Source of the DNA: Candidatus [Bacteroides] periocalifornicus | Lineage (GTDB): Bacteria; Bacteroidota; Bacteroidia; Bacteroidales; CAJPTX01 | Direction: 5' to 3' | Length of the DNA stretch: 64,000 nt | Assembly: GCA_001421095.1 (NCBI GenBank) | Contig: LIIK01000008.1 | Location: 2,791-66,790 of the forward strand | Shown here: positions 2,408 to 60,133 of the stretch, one piece after another | Numbering within the stretch: position 1 is the first letter of the stretch | How the letters are laid out: each line of letters begins with the position of its first letter | Program-made: the position numbers and the translations under genes | Notes under the pieces: generated by a model | Seen by the model: only the letters and a program-made list of their open reading frames with translations | What the model was told of the DNA's origin: nothing | Database searches by the model: none

Positions 2408-3790
2408 ATGCGTCGTAATCGGCAAGCGATATTCTGCGTTGTTTCAGTTTTCACCTCGCTGTTGCTGGCGGGTAGGGCTTTGGGGCATGATGTGTCTGCA
2501 CAAACCCTTGGGAGGGGCGAGGATACGCTGGTGCGGAGAGATACCCTGGTAATGCCGCCAGCCGACACCGTGAAGGGGGCTGTTCGCCCGTTGCAGGCAG
2601 GTGTGGATTCAGTGCGTATACAGCTCGATTCGGGGAGAATTCTGACAGATTCTGCTCATCTACAGCTCGATACGCTGCAGGGAGGACGGGATACCGCAAG
2701 ATACCCTACCGATTCGATACGGCAGGTGCTCGACTCCGTGGCGGTGCCCGTAGATACTACCATCACCATAATGGCGGTGGGCGATGTGATGCTGGGGAGC
2801 GACTTTCCCAGTAAGAATCAGCTACCACCACGTGATGATGCCGATGCGTTGCTACGAGAGGTTCAAGGGCTCTTCAAGCGCGGCGATGTGGTTTTTGGCA
2901 ATCTGGAGGGTGCGTTCCTGGCGGGTGGGCATCCAGCCAAGAGCTGCAAGGACCCCAGTCGCTGCTATCTATTCCGCATGCCGCCTCGCTATGCAGCAGC
3001 GCTACAGCGGGCAGGCTTTACCGCGATTAGCAATGCGAACAACCATGTGGGGGATTTTGGCGAACCCGCACGGCGGTGCACGGGGCGCCTGCTCGATTCG
3101 CTGGGCATTGCACGGGCAGGATTGCTATCGCACCCTGTGGACACTATCTGGGTGAAAGGGGTTAAGATTGGCCTGTGCGCTTTTGCCCCGAATTCAGGGT
3201 GCTGCCAGCTGAATGACTACGCGGGGCTAAGGAGGATAGTGGCCGGGCTAAAGGCCAAGTGCCAGCTGGTGATAGCCTCGTGCCACATGGGGGGTGAAGG
3301 CTCTGCGCAAACCCACATCACCAAGCAGCGGGAGATATTCCTTGGCGAGAACAGGGGAAACCCCTATGAGATAGCCAGGGTGCTGATAGATGCTGGGGCC
3401 GATGTGGTGATAGGGCATGGGCCGCACGTTACCCGGGCGGTAGACATCTATAAGGGTCGCCTAATAGCCTACAGTCTTGGGAATTTCTGCACATACGGGG
3501 GCTTCAACCTTCGTGGCGTGTGCGGCATATCGCCAGTGCTGGAGGTTCGGGTAGGGCCTAGTGGTCAGTTCCTAGGGGGTAGGGTGCATGCTACGCGGCA
3601 AGAGGGGCGAGGAGGTGTACGGCTAGATGCTGCAGGCACGGTGATAGCGGAGATCCGTCGGCTAATGGCTCATGATATACCTGAAACTCAACTGGTGGTG
3701 CATGAGGATGGAGAAATGGGGCTAAAGAGTAGGGTGAAGGCAGAGAATGCGGTACGTGACTCCGTGCGGCAGCCCCAGGGTGTGCAATGA
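2408..3790 (+). CDS. CapA (PGA_cap) family metallophosphatase-like protein
   Basis: Signal peptide, then MAVGDVMLG, GNLEG, ANNHVGDFG, HMGGEG, GHGPHV and YSLGNF. Confidence 0.8.
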   Translation: MRRNRQAIFCVVSVFTSLLLAGRALGHDVSAQTLGRGEDTLVRRDTLVMPPADTVKGAVRPLQAGVDSVRIQLDSGRILTDSAHLQLDTLQGGRDTARYPTDSIRQVLDSVAVPVDTTITIMAVGDVMLGSDFPSKNQLPPRDDADALLREVQGLFKRGDVVFGNLEGAFLAGGHPAKSCKDPSRCYLFRMPPRYAAALQRAGFTAISNANNHVGDFGEPARRCTGRLLDSLGIARAGLLSHPVDTIWVKGVKIGLCAFAPNSGCCQLNDYAGLRRIVAGLKAKCQLVIASCHMGGEGSAQTHITKQREIFLGENRGNPYEIARVLIDAGADVVIGHGPHVTRAVDIYKGRLIAYSLGNFCTYGGFNLRGVCGISPVLEVRVGPSGQFLGGRVHATRQEGRGGVRLDAAGTVIAEIRRLMAHDIPETQLVVHEDGEMGLKSRVKAENAVRDSVRQPQGVQ

Positions 3791-5539: not shown

Positions 5540-6322
5540 ATGGCAGAGGAGATACGAGAAGAGCAGCCGACGGTGGCCACGCGCGAGGAGCGCACGATGG
5601 ATGAGAACCTACAGGTACTCTATAACCTTCAGCGCGTAGATTCCAAGATCGACCATTTCCGTCGCCTACGGGGCGAACTTCCCGAAGAGGTGCGCGACCT
5701 AGAGGATGAGATAGAGGGGCTACGGACTCGTGTGGCCAACCTAGAAGGCGAACTGCAAGGTGGGCTGGAGCAGATATCATCCAAGCGTATAGAGATCAGG
5801 GCGATAGAGAACCAGATATCTAAGTACGCCGAGCAGCAGAAGAATGTGCGCAATAACCGGGAGTACGATTCGCTTACCAACGAGCTAGAGTACCAGCGCC
5901 TTGAGGTGGATCTGCGCAATAAGCAGATACGAGACATTAAAACCCGCAATGAGGGGGTAAGTCGGCAGCTGGAGGTGGCTAAGCGCCATATAGCCGAGAG
6001 GGAGCTAGACCTAGGTGTGAAGCGCTCTGAGCTGCAGGGTATAATAGACGAAACGGAGAAGGAGGAGGCAGAATTGCGGGCAGAATCTGAAACCCTACAG
6101 TCCAAACTGCCCGAGCGCGTGCTGCAGGGATACCTACGGATACGGAATAGCGTGCGCAATGGGCTGGCGGTAGTCTCCGTAAAACGGAATGCCTGCGGCG
6201 GGTGTTTTAATAGGATACCTCCCCAGCGTCTGCTAGATATTCGTATGCAGAAGCGGATAATTGTATGCGAGTACTGCGGGAGAATCCTAGTGTGGGATGA
6301 GCATGCGGAGGATGAGGAGTAG
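5540..6322 (+). CDS. Zinc-ribbon/coiled-coil protein (COG1579, zf-RING_7 type), conserved Nif3 partner
   Basis: Long coiled coil ending in CGGCFNRIPPQ...VCEYCGRIL. The ATG at 5540 lies 14 nt after the nif3 stop; the track start at 5471 overlaps nif3. Confidence 0.8.
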   Translation: MAEEIREEQPTVATREERTMDENLQVLYNLQRVDSKIDHFRRLRGELPEEVRDLEDEIEGLRTRVANLEGELQGGLEQISSKRIEIRAIENQISKYAEQQKNVRNNREYDSLTNELEYQRLEVDLRNKQIRDIKTRNEGVSRQLEVAKRHIAERELDLGVKRSELQGIIDETEKEEAELRAESETLQSKLPERVLQGYLRIRNSVRNGLAVVSVKRNACGGCFNRIPPQRLLDIRMQKRIIVCEYCGRILVWDEHAEDEE

Positions 6323-51820: not shown

Positions 51821-52576
51821 ATGGTGCGTAATCAGCGGAATGTGTGGATTCTTATGCTAGCTGCGATGTCGCTTCTGACTGTGCCGCTCGGCTGTACGAA
51901 AGAGCCGATTAAGCCCATTGAGAATCCTGACAGAGTCGACACCGTTCCAAATCCCAAGCCAGATACCATTCCAGACCCCAAGCCACAACCCGAACCGTCG
52001 CCAGTGCCAGGCAAATACCCCGCTGTCGATAGTATCATGGTGGATGCCTACCATTTCGATAGTTGGGTCTACATCTCCCTCGAGAAGAGGGGCAATGCTC
52101 GCGTATTGGGGAAGGGGAGCATGACTGTGGATGGCGAACGGCGAGTGGTGGAGGAGCTTTCTTGGAGAGAGCGTGATGATTGGGATGTGGCGCTCCACCT
52201 TACCGACTGGCGCACCAATGGCGGTACATCGGGAAAAGGGCAGTGCGCAGTGGCCAGAACCGAGGAGAAGGACTTTGCTAAAGTTACCGAGGTACCAGCA
52301 CCGTCGGCATTCATAGCCGATGATTCTATACAGGTGCACTATGCGCATAAGCTGGATAAGATTACCACCTTTGGCAATGCGCTACTGTCTGATGTTGTGA
52401 CCATGGTGCACCAAGGGGGCGGTCCTCCAATATTCTCCATTCTCCCGAAAGTTTTAGTGCTTCGCACAGCCAAGGGGCGATACCTCAAGCTGCAGGTAAC
52501 GGGCTACATGGATATGGCAGCGAGTAAATATCTGCAAATCTCATTCAGATACCAAGAGCTAAAGCCGCAGCCATAG
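51821..52576 (+). CDS. HmuY-family (haem-binding) lipoprotein
   Basis: Lipobox LGC. Collinear pattern match to P. gingivalis HmuY from memory: DAYHFDSWVYISL, DDWDVALHLTDWRTNGGTSGKG, VPAPSAFIAD, VLVLRTAKGRYLKLQVTGY, ISFRYQEL. Confidence 0.65.
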   Translation: MVRNQRNVWILMLAAMSLLTVPLGCTKEPIKPIENPDRVDTVPNPKPDTIPDPKPQPEPSPVPGKYPAVDSIMVDAYHFDSWVYISLEKRGNARVLGKGSMTVDGERRVVEELSWRERDDWDVALHLTDWRTNGGTSGKGQCAVARTEEKDFAKVTEVPAPSAFIADDSIQVHYAHKLDKITTFGNALLSDVVTMVHQGGGPPIFSILPKVLVLRTAKGRYLKLQVTGYMDMAASKYLQISFRYQELKPQP

Positions 52577-54675: not shown

Positions 54676-54701
54676 GGCGGAATACCGCAAAATCTGATTC
54701 A

Positions 54702-54738
54702 ACGGGCGATGCGAAGAGCATCGTCCGTTTTTTTTTTT
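54702..54738 (+). terminator. Rho-independent terminator
   Basis: 11-bp stem acgggcgatgc/gcatcgtccgt, then T11. Confidence 0.8.
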
Positions 54739-54756
54739 GCAATTTATTGATGTCTG

Positions 54757-54832
54757 GTAAAACTTAATGGGGGTTACGAAATCTCCTAAGAATATAGTCA
54801 AAATCTTCAAAAATAGGCTTATAAAGGCCTAA
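54757..54832 (+). repeat. Left arm of ~76-81-bp imperfect inverted repeat bounding the 5.7-kb cassette
   Basis: gtaaaactta..ggggttacgaaatctcctaagaatatagtcaaaatcttcaaaaataggcttataaaggcctaa is the reverse complement (with a few mismatches and indels) of 60421-60501. Confidence 0.8.
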
Positions 54833-55233
54833 CAAGCAAGAAATACCCAGATAATAGCAATTTGTATAATCTGTCTAAAAGATTGCCTCTGTATTAAAAT
54901 TGGCTATAACTATAAGATTTTTATCTATTTGCAGTAATCGTATGTATTTTTAGCGGACAGCAATAAAAAAAGATTGAACCCATTACGAAACTTTTGCAGG
55001 GGGGCATCGTGCCAAATTTCGCTCTGGTATAGACTGGGAGGTGTTGATGGTATGTTATTTCACGGCTCGTTGCCCTCCTTAGTAAGGACGCGGTGTAACC
55101 CAACCCCAAGGGAGGCCCCAAACCGAACAAAGAAAGCAAAAGATATCAACGCCAATTGACTCTGAAATCTTGCACGCCGGGATTTGAATCACTACCTAGT
55201 TGTGGCGTGCCTGTAGAACGGTTATGATCCACT

Positions 55234-56256
55234 TCACATTTCTTCGCTCCACTGCATACATTCCGGGTTATAATGGCATTTATAGGGTTTATCTGTAAGG
55301 TTTTCCAGAAAGGCTCTACAGTCATTGCAAAGATATCTGAACTCGCACAATTTACATACTGAAACACGATCTGTGTTGATCATTCCTAAGGATTGGAATT
55401 TTTCATTACTCACAATATCTACTAACTGAACGTCATTCTGATCTATATTACCGTAGTAGCGAGGAATACAGGGACAATTCATTACATCCCCTTCTGATGA
55501 TATGAAGAGTTTCTTGTACAAGCAGCTGTTATATAACTTATTGAACATATAGGAGTGTACAGTCTTCAATCTGTAAAGAGTTCTCCTATTTATCACTCCA
55601 CAGTCTCTGGGAGATGAAAAACATTGCTCTGAATAAAGTATGAATCCTATCGATTGGGATGTGAATTCTGTTTTGATCTTCTTATAATAATTCTTTTCTT
55701 GGTTAAATACTATCATCGATAGCATCGGATATTTTTCTAGGAAAGAAATTGCTTCGTCTACATGATTCCAATTCGGCTGGCAGATTATTAGTTCGATTGA
55801 TAGCCATTCATGCTGTAAAAATGGCTGTAGCGTCTTGTCGACTTCTGCAAGCGATACAGGAAGGAAATATCGAAACTGAAGATGCTGGCAATTCAACTTT
55901 GCGAGTTGTGCCGCAATATAATCATATCTATGCGCATGCTTCTCAATATCTATACATGCGATTTCTATTAGGCACGGAGAGCAGTATATCTCCTCGATTT
56001 TTCTAAATCCAGTAATATCCTCCACTAGAACTCCAAGCCGGTAACGTAAGATAAAGTCGATAAATTGCTGTATGAATTCATGCCATTCCTCTCCCCATTT
56101 GGAAAAAATACACTCAATAGTTTCGGTAGAGAATTGCTCCTGCAAACCACACGGCAAATTTGGGATATAGAGGAGTTCTTCCCTTTTGAAATCAAGCACG
56201 AGCGTTCTTTTCGCTCCCTTGGTGAAAAAAACGTCTGGGAAAATAAGTAGATACAT
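55234..56256 (-). CDS. SPASM-domain peptide maturase ('grasp-with-spasm' type), no canonical radical-SAM CX3CX2C motif
   Basis: The C-terminal Cys pattern fits SPASM: C-x10-G-x4-C (CLYKKLFISSEGDVMNC), then CKLCEFRYLCNDC, then YKCHYNPEC. The N-terminal half has only CSPCLIEIAC (C-x2-C-x5-C). AT-rich codon usage. Confidence 0.75.
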   Translation of the reverse strand: MYLLIFPDVFFTKGAKRTLVLDFKREELLYIPNLPCGLQEQFSTETIECIFSKWGEEWHEFIQQFIDFILRYRLGVLVEDITGFRKIEEIYCSPCLIEIACIDIEKHAHRYDYIAAQLAKLNCQHLQFRYFLPVSLAEVDKTLQPFLQHEWLSIELIICQPNWNHVDEAISFLEKYPMLSMIVFNQEKNYYKKIKTEFTSQSIGFILYSEQCFSSPRDCGVINRRTLYRLKTVHSYMFNKLYNSCLYKKLFISSEGDVMNCPCIPRYYGNIDQNDVQLVDIVSNEKFQSLGMINTDRVSVCKLCEFRYLCNDCRAFLENLTDKPYKCHYNPECMQWSEEM

Positions 56257-56459
56257 TATCCGTCATCTTCATTTTTTGTAGTAAATCCATATATTGTAAC
56301 GGATTTCCAACGATCACATAGGCTGTATTGACTATAGCCATGATATTTCTGGGAAAACGAGAAATTCTTTTTCTCAGAAATTAAATGCTCAGAATCAGCC
56401 TCCCATTCTTTTAGCTCTAAGCTTCGGAAAAAGAGCGGAAATGTTTCTTCTTGTGCCAT
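56256..56459 (-). CDS. 67-aa ORF translationally coupled between the ATP-grasp and SPASM genes (function unknown)
   Basis: Its ATG lies 4 nt after the ATP-grasp stop, and its TAA overlaps the SPASM ATG by 1 nt (TAATG). Acidic C-terminus (KNEDDG). Confidence 0.5.
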   Translation of the reverse strand: MAQEETFPLFFRSLELKEWEADSEHLISEKKNFSFSQKYHGYSQYSLCDRWKSVTIYGFTTKNEDDG

Positions 56460-56463
56460 AGTC

Positions 56464-57444
56464 TTACAGTAAGGACGCTAATTCTTTCTCTAGGTAGTAG
56501 TTGCAGGCTGTACCATAGGCCGTAAATTGCCCCACTGGGTTCACTTCGAGAAATACGTAAGCACCGTTCGAATCTACTACCAAATCAATAGCCCCGAATT
56601 GCAAATCCAAGAGTCGCATCAAATGGGAAAGCTTCTGAGCGATTGAATCGGGAAGTCTATAAGGAACAATGCGAAGATCCTTTGGCTGGCAACGTCTTCC
56701 ATCAATGGTTGCCCCTTCAAGTTCCTGCGTGAATAGGGCCACCGCATAGCAACGTCCAGCTATATAGATTACGCGAAGCTCAAATCGCTTTTCAATTTTT
56801 TCTTGAAAAAGCGCATGGGGAAAAGTATCTGGTATTGAGGACAGATCTTCCTCCGTCACCAGTGAAGTGTATGATATATAAGCGCTAGATTTTTGAACAT
56901 CGTAAACCCCTTCATACATTGGCTTTACGATCATATCCCCTTTCTGCTTAATCAAATCTTTCAACTCGCTTTTCTTGTTTATGATATAAGTCGCTGGCGT
57001 TTTAAGCCCAATGTTTCTAGCTATTACAAGTACACTTAGCTTATTCAGCTCGCGTTTTTCGTATTCGCAGAGTTTAAAGCTTGCCTGCTTTTGAATCTGC
57101 TCAAAAATAAAAGCCCGATAAACGAGAAACTCGGTTTTTAGGAATTCCTTATAATGATCGATTTTGTAGGCTTCACATTTGTCATGCGGAAGATCTGCAT
57201 GTGCCGTGGCTGGAGGTAGTGCTAGGTTGATTCCACATTTTCGATACCAAAAGCTCGTGATTTCTGAGATGTCAATATCCCTCGCACAGTAGATAGATCG
57301 GGCGCTCAGCTTCCCATTTGAGTATTTGAAATGAATATCATGACAATCCCCATTGAACCGGAAATAGTTTTTTCCCCAGAAGTAAAGCCAATCAATCACC
57401 CTAGAGGTGGCGAAATCATCTAATCGCGAGGATATAGCTATCAT
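56464..57444 (-). CDS. ATP-grasp peptide maturase (graspetide/'grasp-with-spasm' type)
   Basis: MIAISSRLDDFATSRVIDWL N-terminal pre-ATP-grasp region. Later VKPMYEG, FELRVIYIAGRCYAVA and YVFLEVNPVGQF. The track start at 57573 adds 43 codons and is less likely. Confidence 0.8.
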   Translation of the reverse strand: MIAISSRLDDFATSRVIDWLYFWGKNYFRFNGDCHDIHFKYSNGKLSARSIYCARDIDISEITSFWYRKCGINLALPPATAHADLPHDKCEAYKIDHYKEFLKTEFLVYRAFIFEQIQKQASFKLCEYEKRELNKLSVLVIARNIGLKTPATYIINKKSELKDLIKQKGDMIVKPMYEGVYDVQKSSAYISYTSLVTEEDLSSIPDTFPHALFQEKIEKRFELRVIYIAGRCYAVALFTQELEGATIDGRRCQPKDLRIVPYRLPDSIAQKLSHLMRLLDLQFGAIDLVVDSNGAYVFLEVNPVGQFTAYGTACNYYLEKELASLL

Positions 57445-57602
57445 AAGTACAAAAAAAATTAAAATAGAGAGTTCCACCCGTGAGTAAGTAGAACCCTCTA
57501 TCAAACTAAACCGCTTCTTGTAGCTATCGTATGGGATAAACGACGAGTTACAGCCTCTAACAAATACATACAAAACCTACAGAAGTGCGTACCAAACTGA
57601 TC

Positions 57603-57788
57603 TTACTTCAAGTCAGTCAGTTTTTCTGTATCAGCATCGCTATCTACATCCTTACCGCTGGCCTCGCTGCACTGCATCCCTGAAGACAACGTAAAGGAAA
57701 GATGCCAATCCCATTCCTTACCACCAAGAAGTTCTTCTTGCATGCTCTGTGGAATTTCAAAATCCACATTGAAATTCTTAACATCCAT
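57603..57788 (-). CDS. Candidate RiPP precursor peptide (61 aa) with double-glycine leader
   Basis: MDVKNFNVDFEIPQSMQEELLGG | KEWDWHLSFTLSSGMQCSEASGKDVDSDADTEKLTDLK. Verified ATG at 57788-57786 and TAA at 57605-57603. It is the only AT-rich part of the 181-aa track ORF and lies 158 nt upstream of the ATP-grasp gene. Confidence 0.65.
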   Translation of the reverse strand: MDVKNFNVDFEIPQSMQEELLGGKEWDWHLSFTLSSGMQCSEASGKDVDSDADTEKLTDLK

Positions 57789-57829
57789 GATCGTAAGTAT
57801 TTTGTGAAACAATATGAACACAACATCTA

Positions 57830-60133
57830 CTACAATCGCTGTACCTCGTCGGATACCTCGTTTGGTTTCTTCGTAGTTTTCATACCCCATCGGTACTGCA
57901 CTGAGAGGAAGACGCCGCGAATCCCACCCCGCGAAAAGCTGTCCCGCTGGATTCCGTTGGTCTCCAGGAGGATGTTCTCGTAGGCCGTATTGAACATATC
58001 GTCGGCTATTAGCTGAGTTACGAGCTGCCCCCCGAGCCAGCTCTTCGATATGCGCCCATCTGCATTGATGTAGCCCTTCGTCACCCCGGTGGCATAGCTC
58101 CCACCGTGCACGTGGGAGCGTACCCCAAGAGTTAGGTTCCATCCCCACCCTACTGCGTACCGTACTCGCAGCGAGTAGGCCACGAAGGGGTGGGTGTAGC
58201 GTTGGCCATTGTAGCGCAGATCCTGGAGCTGCACGCCAACCTGCCCGTTTATGGAGAGATGCCAGATCTTCGGGCTGAAGGCGAGCGCGGTGAAGTACTG
58301 GTTGTGGTCTGGCAGATTCATGGGGGCGACCAGCACTATGGCCTGGGCATCGTCATGCAGCCGCGCCACCTCAAAGACACGTGCGTAGACCCTGCTGTAG
58401 GAGACCTCCCACGATAGCCACCCGTAGGAGAGGTTGCATGCGACCTCGCGCAGCCGGCTGGTGCGCAGATTGGGGTTGCCATCCCAGCGGAGATACCGAT
58501 TGTTCATGAAGTGGTTCGAGGAGAGCTGTTCGTAGGAGGGTCTATCCACCATCTCCCTGTACGCCAGCTCGAGAGCCAGATTATCAGACTCGTAGCCCAG
58601 GGTGACCACAGGGAGAAGATCGAGCGACCTGCGGCTCTGCCCGGGCTGTAGCACCCTGTCTGCGTAGTACCGATAATCCACGTACTCCGCCCCGAGCTGC
58701 CCTTGGAGCCTCCACTGCTCGCCCAGCGTGTAGGTGCAGCCCACGTAGCCCCCTAGGCGATCTTGCCGGAACTGATCGGAGGCGAGCTGCGCGCGGCTAT
58801 ACTCCCCTTCACGAGCTGTGCGTGCGTAGTCTGCCCCTAGGGAAAGTTCAAAATCGCCTAGTTTGTGGGAGAAATCCCCCTTGGCAAAGAGAAGGCGGGC
58901 GCGCGATACGGTACGGTAGGCATCTGGCACCCCGCCTGTCCCGTAGAGGATCGCCCGCTCCGATTCAGCTCCCGTCCAGTAGTAGCTGCCCGTGATAGCT
59001 GCGGTTGTCCGCTCAGTCTGGAAATCGTAACCGCCCCCCACGGTGTAGCCCTGATTTTTATCTAGGGTTTCGCTCCGGAAGGGCTGCTCTTCCCTTGTGG
59101 TTGAACCAGAGCGCGGGCGTAACTGGTGCGAGAAATCACCCGCTATCACAGTTCGTTTCCTACGGCTCGGCTGGGCATCTACATACAGGTTGAGCGTATG
59201 GCTACTGCTCAGATGGTAGAACAGCTTGGCGCCACCCGATAGCTCACGATTTTGTCGACGGCGATTCGCAAGCAGACGATTATCCACCGTACCCCGCGAG
59301 GTGCCGTAGTGGAACACCTCCTCATCGTGCAGGCGGTTGGTATTCTCAAATTCGTGAATCCCGAGAAGGATATCGAGCCGGGACAGGCTAAGGAAACCGC
59401 TTGCATCCGCAGTATTCGTCCAACCGTTACGCAGTCCGAATTTGTCGTAGAGGTCGAACCCGATATATTCGCTCCGCTTACGGTAGGTGTTGATGATGAT
59501 GGCCGAGCCTACATTTACCCCGTACCGACCTGAGGGGTTCGTGGTGATCTCCACATTGCGAATCTGTGACGATTTCACGCGCGCAAGTTCGTTGGCATCC
59601 TGCACTTCCCGACCGTCTATGAATATGGCTGGCGTGCCATGCCCGAAGATGGACACCGCACCGTCTGTAACCTCCACCCGGGGCATTTCACGTAGCACAT
59701 CGAGCAGCGTGCCGACTGCCTCCAGCTGAGTCCCCTGGATCTTCACCGTGGTGAGGTTGGCCTTCCGCTCGATGCGTTCCGCATCGCCCCGGACTACCAC
59801 CCGCTCGATCTCCTGCACTGGAGAGTCGGCCACTACGATGCCAAGGTCAGTATCGCCTATCACGTTCACTGATATCTCTTGCAGATTCTGCCCGAGGTAG
59901 GTGAACCGTAGCCCGTAGTGACCCACGGAAACCGTGCCCGCCATGTGGCCTTGCGCATCGGTCCAGTACACTGCAGCGTGCCTCTGCTCCCCCTCGGGGG
60001 TGAATATGCAGGTAACATCGGGCAGCGGCCTACCTGTGCTATCCTGCAGCGTGAGGCTTACTCTAGCCACTTGGGCAACAGCCGGGGACACGGCAAGCAG
60101 TGACGCAACAAATACGGCTATCAATCTTTTCAT
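57830..60133 (-). CDS. Outer-membrane beta-barrel protein (CarboxypepD_reg-like + plug-like + OMP_b-brl_3/TonB-dependent-receptor-like barrel)
   Basis: Signal peptide MKRLIAVFVASLLAVSPAVAQ. N-terminal VSLTLQDSTGRPLPDV. Plug-like FGHGTPAIFIDGREV. Alternating beta-strand pattern ending in LSVQYRWG. Confidence 0.75.
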   Translation of the reverse strand: MKRLIAVFVASLLAVSPAVAQVARVSLTLQDSTGRPLPDVTCIFTPEGEQRHAAVYWTDAQGHMAGTVSVGHYGLRFTYLGQNLQEISVNVIGDTDLGIVVADSPVQEIERVVVRGDAERIERKANLTTVKIQGTQLEAVGTLLDVLREMPRVEVTDGAVSIFGHGTPAIFIDGREVQDANELARVKSSQIRNVEITTNPSGRYGVNVGSAIIINTYRKRSEYIGFDLYDKFGLRNGWTNTADASGFLSLSRLDILLGIHEFENTNRLHDEEVFHYGTSRGTVDNRLLANRRRQNRELSGGAKLFYHLSSSHTLNLYVDAQPSRRKRTVIAGDFSHQLRPRSGSTTREEQPFRSETLDKNQGYTVGGGYDFQTERTTAAITGSYYWTGAESERAILYGTGGVPDAYRTVSRARLLFAKGDFSHKLGDFELSLGADYARTAREGEYSRAQLASDQFRQDRLGGYVGCTYTLGEQWRLQGQLGAEYVDYRYYADRVLQPGQSRRSLDLLPVVTLGYESDNLALELAYREMVDRPSYEQLSSNHFMNNRYLRWDGNPNLRTSRLREVACNLSYGWLSWEVSYSRVYARVFEVARLHDDAQAIVLVAPMNLPDHNQYFTALAFSPKIWHLSINGQVGVQLQDLRYNGQRYTHPFVAYSLRVRYAVGWGWNLTLGVRSHVHGGSYATGVTKGYINADGRISKSWLGGQLVTQLIADDMFNTAYENILLETNGIQRDSFSRGGIRGVFLSVQYRWGMKTTKKPNEVSDEVQRL

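Follow-up and report, generated by a model that had tools for sequence, protein, structure and literature searches.

The 61-codon open reading frame (ORF) at 57603..57788 on the minus strand of the window (the whole stretch of DNA that was analysed, 64 kb in length) very probably encodes the ribosomal precursor of a graspetide from a 'grasp-with-spasm' gene cluster. Our analysis confirmed that this frame is a real, conserved graspetide precursor gene. Both the gene and its class were already known: the 61-aa sequence is that of GenBank KQM09293.1 (UniRef100_A0A0Q4B8Q6, "hypothetical protein AL399_02695") from the Candidatus [Bacteroides] periocalifornicus MAG; this peptide was published in the final predicted graspetide precursor set of Makarova et al. 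2022 (Biol Direct 17:7, PMC8939145) as a member of cluster2721, and the present result is therefore a rediscovery and not a new find. The new elements are the S-x-T-x-S / D-x-D-S-D register found in 16 sequences and its persistence when the leader is swapped, together with a conserved hairpin after the precursor gene, the synteny of an outer-membrane protein gene, a break in base composition and the absence of an exporter gene at the locus.

Coordinates and start of the precursor gene

Translation of the minus-strand ORF gave MDVKNFNVDFEIPQSMQEELLGGKEWDWHLSFTLSSGMQCSEASGKDVDSDADTEKLTDLK, in agreement with the sequence read in the preliminary description. The peptide consists of a 23-aa leader with a terminal GG (MDVKNFNVDFEIPQSMQEELLGG; residues 1-23, 57720..57788, minus strand) and a 38-aa core (KEWDWH...DLK; residues 24-61, 57606..57719, minus strand), and is followed by a TAA stop codon at 57603-57605. 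The same frame can be extended to a 181-aa ORF (57603-58148) with a GTG start, but the extension merely continues, out of frame, into the upstream gene for an outer-membrane beta-barrel protein (OMP; 57830-60133), whose 3' part it covers. The initial suggestion that the real gene comprises the last 61 codons of this longer ORF was borne out, since homology was found to this frame and the remainder overlaps the OMP gene. In addition, the N-termini of the relatives lined up with the 61-aa start in our alignment.

Gene calling was uneven at this locus. The precursor gene and the small LPL gene described below were often mis-called or missed; of the four assemblies that span the LPL ORF, a single one called it. 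Two longer forms were rejected as over-extensions: a 95-aa form of the precursor (P0001; called in some assemblies), which extends back over the 3' end of the OMP gene, and a 369-aa form of gwsG with a TTG start, since it is the N-terminus of the 326-aa form that aligns with the relatives.

The length of 61 codons says little by itself because ORFs of at least 30 aa are plentiful, with 150 of them in the 14 kb around the precursor. This abundance, the variation of the start between gene callers (61, 72, 93 or 95 aa) and the lack of a match in curated family collections (see below) are the features expected if the frame were a chance ORF, never translated, within AT-rich promoter or leader sequence that separates the OMP gene from gwsG. 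The comparison with related loci argues strongly against this explanation, as follows.

Neighbouring genes and synteny

The gene downstream of the precursor on the same strand, gwsG (56464..57444, minus strand; ATG at 57444), begins 158 nt after the end of the precursor ORF and encodes a 326-aa ATP-grasp peptide maturase. The product scored 255 bits against TIGR04192 ("grasp-with-spasm system ATP-grasp peptide maturase"; cut-off, 230), carries an MvdD pre-ATP-grasp domain (Pfam) and matched the solved structures of MdnC, MdnB, AMdnB and CdnC (PDB 5ig9, 5ig8, 7m4s and 7mgv; E 1e-21 to 1e-27). The gene gwsS (55234..56256, minus strand) encodes a 340-aa SPASM-domain protein (Pfam SPASM) that scored 212 bits against TIGR04193 ("grasp-with-spasm system SPASM domain peptide maturase"; cut-off, 175). 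Only one ORF lies between gwsG and gwsS, and it encodes a 67-aa small protein of the LPL family (56256..56459, minus strand; FPLFFRSLEL ... FSQKYHGYSQY ... RWKSVTI), which has homologues in the same position in L040-L051. Upstream of the precursor, the OMP gene (57830..60133, minus strand) encodes a 767-aa outer-membrane beta-barrel with OMP_b-brl_3 and CarboxypepD_reg matches in Pfam and ends 41 nt before the precursor ATG.

This arrangement was repeated in related loci. In the close relatives, an OMP_b-brl_3 gene (818 aa) is followed by a 68-72-aa ORF, an ATP-grasp gene (330 aa), a 56-64-aa ORF, a SPASM gene (340 aa) and a gene for a C39-peptidase ABC transporter (743 aa), and the order OMP, small ORF, ATP-grasp, small ORF, SPASM, with or without C39-ABC, recurred across L040-L053. 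The OMP gene also occupies the same position in L046, L052 and L053. Between the window and L040, amino acid identities were 36% for OMP (E 1.6e-166), 48% for GwsG (E 2.2e-103), 39% for LPL (E 2e-9, tblastn) and 49% for GwsS (E 1.6e-111). On the long contigs of the relatives, the cluster is located amid genes of conjugative elements (TraG, TraQ, DUF3945 and Toprim_Crpt).

Conservation and coding constraint of the precursor frame

The preliminary description had proposed aligning the small ORFs that precede ATP-grasp homologues, and this comparison yielded homologues with a conserved leader and a conserved Ser/Thr and Asp register. Loci whose GwsG is 47-51% identical to that of the window contain a homologous 68-72-aa ORF in the same position; the 68-aa ORF of L040, for example, is MKKKKIDVGVEIPQSMQEALLGGQGLEKISITISLASSANLSSGKDKDSDIDESTATTPPLGGKKLLP. 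When the syntenic 68-aa ORF was searched against all six frames of the window by tblastn, the sole match was the precursor frame (47% identity, E 6e-11). The precursor alone as query matched only near-identical clusters in a database of 5.8 billion proteins; the family was reached via the neighbours of GwsG homologues and then by profile search, and a profile of the relatives recovered the precursor's own cluster from the same database at E 9e-23.

Codon alignment of the precursor between loci gave a pN/pS of 0.44-0.61 (pN, 0.35-0.47; pS, 0.62-0.88), and the conserved residues, including the invariant ones, are written with different, synonymous codons across the loci. Because pN/pS is in this range with synonymous sites saturated, we infer that the frame is translated and constrained. 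Homologues are thus kept in the same position at loci where the flanking enzymes are only 38-51% identical, and, for practical purposes, this codon-level conservation refutes the explanation of a chance ORF, which we now regard as extremely improbable.

Searches of the precursor against Pfam (E up to 0.1) and NCBIfam (E up to 10) gave no match, including to TIGR04149, TIGR04139 and PF14406; this family is thus outside the reach of the curated precursor models. The leaders from more distant loci scored 15.6-21.6 bits on TIGR04149, under its cut-off of 25.

The family extends beyond the close relatives. A sub-family of 66-aa peptides encoded as tandem pairs has an unrelated leader, MKKKKLLKVEDELSNDKLTQIIGG, which is of the canonical Bacteroidota type, and the same core, KISVTISMASQSELSEASSGKDKDSDADES; its locus has the order OMP, precursor, GwsG, LPL, GwsS and C39-ABC, and its GwsG is 38% identical to that of the window. 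Farther away, in 32 Bacteroidota genomes with a GwsG 28-37% identical to that of the window, almost every locus has, on the same strand, a small ORF for a peptide with a GG leader, either immediately before the ligase gene or about 1 kb upstream, and a ~50-80-aa ORF between the ligase and SPASM genes. The precursor cores across these more distant loci are hypervariable.

Leader and core of the precursor

The leader contains a conserved EIPQSMQExLLGG block with the double glycine at its end. An alignment of seven sequences showed that E11, I12, P13, Q17 and G22 are invariant, and in a 16-sequence alignment E11, G22, T33 and I34 were at least 90% conserved. The double-glycine end proposed earlier was well supported: G22 is kept in all 15 leader-containing sequences, while G23 is replaced by Ala in one of the 15. 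In P0001, the commonest variant within the lineage, both non-synonymous changes in the precursor fall in the leader.

The core has nine Asp/Glu residues and follows the pattern L-S31-F-T33-L-S35, 11 residues, K46-D47-V-D49-S50-D51-A-D53, which corresponds to a family motif of h-S-h-T-h-S ... K-D-x-D-S-D-x-D. S31, S35, D47, D49, S50 and D51 (window numbering) are invariant in the 16-sequence alignment, and the loop between the S/T arm and the D arm has 11 or 14 residues. K46 is Lys in most relatives and Arg or Ser in some. The core motif is conserved more strongly than the leader or the enzymes. The expectation that the core would offer acidic and hydroxyl residues to an ATP-grasp enzyme was thereby substantiated in a more specific form: the Ser/Thr and Asp residues keep a fixed register, and the gene for a RiPP-type ATP-grasp ligase follows immediately downstream.

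The single Cys (C40) and the two Trp residues (W26 and W28) of the core had been suggested as possible targets of the SPASM enzyme. This suggestion did not hold, since all three residues were found only in the window lineage and the CxxxCxxC motif was present in none of the 21 GwsS homologues. GwsS has nine conserved Cys residues, including the SPASM set. It matched the SPASM domain only and not the Radical_SAM domain of Pfam, and a sequence search against solved structures found no relative. Because CxxxCxxC is absent from 21 of 21 homologues, GwsS is not a canonical radical-SAM enzyme.

The LPL protein as an alternative substrate

A second explanation accepts the 61-aa ORF as a real small protein and gives it another role, for example as a regulator or immunity factor, with the 67-aa LPL ORF or a peptide from elsewhere as the substrate. 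The LPL ORF is a reasonable candidate in terms of position: it is conserved, with homologues of 56-64 aa between the ATP-grasp and SPASM genes in all close relatives, and is tightly linked, its stop codon overlapping the gwsS start by 1 nt (ATGA). Furthermore, two conserved Cys residues in the close LPL relatives borne on integrative and conjugative elements (ICEs; YCYSQKYQGYC) could suit an Fe-S enzyme. However, neither residue is kept in the window or in L051, and the LPL proteins have neither a GG leader nor a conserved register of Ser/Thr and Asp/Glu. What they share is a motif, FPLFFRSLEL in the window and PLFLRSIE in the relatives; the 67-aa sequence itself gave no match in Pfam or NCBIfam, including at E up to 10. 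The 61-aa family, on the other hand, has a GG site, matching C39 exporters in its relatives and a core that is kept despite the change of leader. Makarova et al. came to the same conclusion and proposed a PqqD-like auxiliary role for LPL, either as a chaperone or in partnership with the ATP-grasp enzyme, on the grounds that the LPL motif is similar to a leader motif that branch-5 precursors lack (PMC8939145). We consider a non-substrate role for the 61-aa protein very unlikely and retain it as the graspetide precursor.

Hairpin, base composition and state of the locus

A terminator scan located a 17-bp hairpin with a trailing U-rich run at 57463..57502 (minus strand), 19 nt before the gwsG start codon, and folding of the spacer between the precursor gene and gwsG gave z = -3.4. 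Strong hairpins of different sequence are present at the same place in L040, L046, L049, L050, L044 and L052. The hairpin could be an attenuating terminator, or an element that stabilises RNA, placed between the precursor gene and those of the enzymes. Our scan for Sigma-70 promoter sites, which is ill-suited to Bacteroidota, returned nine sites, with 8.3 expected from shuffled sequences.

The G+C content decreases from 0.55-0.63 to 0.35-0.47 over approximately 54700-57830, and the break coincides exactly with the boundary between the OMP and precursor genes; the OMP gene itself has a host-like G+C content. The GC3 values were 0.70 for the OMP gene and 0.72 for era, and 0.44 for the precursor gene and 0.43, 0.31 and 0.41 for the other three genes within the AT-rich block. 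The cassette in the window adjoins era and not conjugation genes, and housekeeping neighbours such as era were also found on two contigs of the same lineage (L033 and L034).

These observations raise the possibility that the cassette is a stranded remnant of an ICE-borne cluster which has lost its exporter/peptidase gene and the genes downstream, so that the peptide is perhaps still made and no longer matured or secreted. The relatives reside in conjugative elements, and the AT-rich block, which abuts era, is only about 3.1 kb long. A C39-peptidase ABC transporter is encoded in cis right after the SPASM gene in L040, L044 and L053, and the C39-ABC and a 168-aa protein that follow gwsS in L040 and L044 are without counterparts in the window. 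A tblastn search with two C39-ABC relatives (E up to 1) found no C39-peptidase ABC exporter in the 64-kb window, in which no ABC ATPase of any kind was detectable; likewise, no remnant of the C39-ABC or of the 168-aa protein was found in 54676-55233 or in the whole window (tblastn, E up to 1). The AT-rich stretch at 54676-55233 (560 bp) contains no tRNA and no credible Rfam element; its sole Rfam match, STnc240, scored 27.6 bits against a cut-off of 55 bits and overlaps a terminator-like hairpin (54701-54729) after era.

Nevertheless, the cassette does not look decayed. All four genes are intact, and the arrangement is identical in seven independent metagenome contigs, each from its own assembly. 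In comparisons of the window with metagenomic variants of ~96-97% identity, pN/pS was 0.23 for gwsG and 0.12 for gwsS, values comparable to that of the OMP gene (0.15); the value for era was 0.06. Moreover, a peptidase-ABC gene is found nearby in only 35%, or about a third, of Group 14 clusters (Carter et al. 2026, PMC13097080), which suggests that action in trans is common. A stranded remnant is therefore an unlikely description of the locus, and we continue to treat it as an intact precursor and enzyme cassette.

Proposed product and biosynthesis

In graspetide biosynthesis, ATP-grasp ligases link the side-chain carboxyls of Asp/Glu to the hydroxyls of Ser/Thr or the amines of Lys (PMC8939145). 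Given its homology to the microviridin ligases MdnB and MdnC, GwsG would use ATP to activate the Asp side-chain carboxylates of the core, which would then form esters with the Ser/Thr hydroxyls. Because some members have Arg or Ser in place of K46, a lactam is not well supported. In both arms of the core, the i, i+2, i+4 spacing would place the side chains on one face of a hairpin, suggesting a macrolactone ladder; the likely product would be a beta-hairpin with up to three omega-ester rungs (S35-D47, T33-D49 and S31-D51, or a shifted pairing).

The roles of the other components can be sketched in the same conditional manner. LPL, with its PLFFRSL motif, probably serves as the partner of one of the enzymes, as a chaperone or leader mimic. 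GwsS, with its two-cluster SPASM Cys set and without CxxxCxxC, may carry out a further modification, take part in redox chemistry or act as a scaffold. Through the hairpin that follows the precursor gene, the precursor transcript may be kept in excess of the enzyme transcript. A C39-peptidase ABC exporter would remove the leader after the GG, and the position of such a gene right after the SPASM gene in the relatives fits cleavage at this site; since the 64-kb window contains no exporter, any such cleavage at this locus, if there is any at all, would have to be carried out in trans. OMP may allow passage across the outer membrane.

The LPL motif PLFFRSL bears an apparent resemblance to the microviridin leader helix PFFARFL. 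A more specific reading, which we offer tentatively and hold to be less probable than its opposite, is that the S-x-T-x-S / D-x-D-S-D register forms a three-rung ester-ladder hairpin, that its formation depends on LPL, which would mimic the microviridin-type leader helix in trans, and that the product would then be altered by a SPASM Fe-S protein lacking the radical-SAM cluster. To our knowledge, a three-rung ester-ladder topology is absent from the characterised graspetides. If this reading were true, it would represent new enzymology in an uncultivated, periodontitis-associated bacterium. As for function, the default expectation is protease inhibition, the activity shared by every graspetide that has been characterised (PMC8939145).

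Comparison with known systems

The window precursor and the cluster2721 entry are the same sequence, with no difference in identity; the other of the two members of cluster2721 is a 68-aa ORF of Porphyromonas cangingivalis (PMC8939145). Branch 5 in that study comprises Bacteroidetes systems with an ATP-grasp enzyme, a TIGR04193 SPASM protein, fast-evolving GG precursors, an LPL protein and pfam14905 outer-membrane barrels (PMC8939145). The branch 5 clusters are Group 14 of Carter et al., with 1,643 clusters, all containing TIGR04193 (PMC13097080). The window locus agrees with Group 14 in the operon and in both signature enzymes, which are above their cut-offs, and also has the LPL ORF, but lacks the peptidase-ABC and HlyD genes seen in about a third of the clusters. 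Our literature search found no experimentally characterised product of a grasp-with-spasm or Group 14 cluster. Such clusters number more than 1,600, and the window family would be an unusually clean starting point for characterising a first product: its single core is short and has six invariant residues that are candidates for cross-linking, and natural variants supply two loop lengths and two types of leader.

A preprint (bioRxiv 10.64898/2026.08.04.741601) describes ICE-borne gwsG/gwsS clusters of P. gingivalis in which the precursor gene, often uncalled, is located immediately upstream and an outer-membrane barrel and an ABC transporter are encoded nearby. The relatives of the window cassette are likewise ICE-borne, whereas the window cassette itself lies beside era. 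A 73-aa P. gingivalis precursor belongs to cluster2758, a sequence cluster different from cluster2721 (PMC8939145), and would fit the 222-bp gene of the preprint.

As in graspetide systems generally, the window ORF is co-directional with a neighbouring gene for a RiPP-type ATP-grasp enzyme and has a core with Ser/Thr and Asp in a fixed register. It shares the conserved GG junction of double-glycine leader peptides, although the cognate C39-ABC gene is absent from the locus. It differs from radical-SAM/SPASM-modified peptides in that its GwsS is without CxxxCxxC and its core is without a conserved Cys.

The microviridin and chryseoviridin systems use a homologous ATP-grasp ligase, and their precursors likewise have a leader and a core with Ser/Thr and Asp/Glu; however, they have two ligases, in contrast to one at the window locus. 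Microviridin precursors carry the core motif TxKxPSDx(D/E)(D/E) and a PFFARFL-type leader motif, and both are absent from the window precursor. Compared with microviridin, the window system includes a SPASM protein in addition, its leader is of the GG type, and a similar motif, PLFFRSL, is found on the separate LPL protein.

In plesiocin and thuringinin biosynthesis, one ATP-grasp enzyme makes all of the linkages (PMC8939145). These peptides have no sequence similarity to the window family, in which the i, i+2, i+4 spacing and a single, non-repeat core are specific features of a predicted topology. Nevertheless, they share with it a layout of hydroxyl residues upstream and acidic residues downstream of a loop, which suggests that the window family also adopts a hairpin.

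Base composition at the OMP/precursor junction

The OMP_b-brl_3 outer-membrane beta-barrel gene (OMP; 57830-60133, minus strand) lies upstream of the gene for the predicted 61-aa graspetide precursor, and the junction between the two (57788-57833) marks a compositional break between OMP and the block at 55234-57788. The codon third-position G+C content (GC3) of OMP was host-like at 0.70, and that of era, the housekeeping gene adjoining the cassette, was 0.72; the four genes downstream of OMP, from the precursor gene to the SPASM gene gwsS, had GC3 values of 0.31-0.44. OMP was 36% identical to its syntenic homologue upstream of the precursor in the ICE-borne loci, in which all of the genes, OMP among them, are AT-rich. 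These results suggest that acquisition or exchange of the block from the precursor gene to gwsS may have come after OMP, or else that OMP may have been ameliorated.

A gingipain-type Peptidase_C25 gene with a Por secretion tail and an HmuY gene were found in the chromosomal surroundings at 13310-16288 of L033, a metagenome contig of the same lineage that is about 96% identical to the window. These assignments were read on L033 only; the corresponding window ORFs include a 251-aa ORF at 51821-52576. Both are Porphyromonas-like traits, and the organism is filed as Bacteroidota incertae sedis. The occurrence of a graspetide cassette and Peptidase_C25 in one lineage is of interest because characterised graspetides are protease inhibitors (PMC8939145).

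Organization of the cassette and its relatives

The automatic gene calls were too long for both the precursor (95 aa; 57603-57890, minus strand), which ran over the OMP stop, and the ATP-grasp gene gwsG (369 aa from a TTG; 56464-57573, minus strand), which in fact starts with the ATG at 57444 and encodes 326 aa. Just 5' of this start is a minus-strand hairpin of 17 bp followed by a U-run (57463-57502), a candidate attenuator separating the precursor from the enzyme genes. Strong hairpins occupy the same spot in the related loci L040 (about 5940-5980), L046 (about 3190-3230), L044, L049, L050, and L052, the position being kept among relatives but not the sequence.

The 67-aa LPL-family ORF (56256-56459, minus strand) was annotated only in L036, although four contigs of the lineage span it. 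The PLFFRSL motif of the window LPL is apparently similar to PFFARFL, the microviridin leader helix. The LPL of close ICE-borne relatives contains a YCYSQKYQGYC motif, both Cys residues of which are substituted in the window and in the related locus L051.

In a comparison with L053 and L055, contig L054 (7001-9100) had OMP and two tandem precursor genes, but the next genes were HTH_17 and phage-integrase genes in place of gwsG-LPL-gwsS, reflecting either mobile-element insertion at this site or enzyme-gene loss. Many distant Bacteroidota grasp-with-spasm loci (L001-L032) have an additional gene of approximately 300 aa that separates gwsG from the GG precursor and probably belongs to Makarova's 'cluster 23' lipoprotein family. 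The window cassette and its close relatives lack this gene and have OMP instead.
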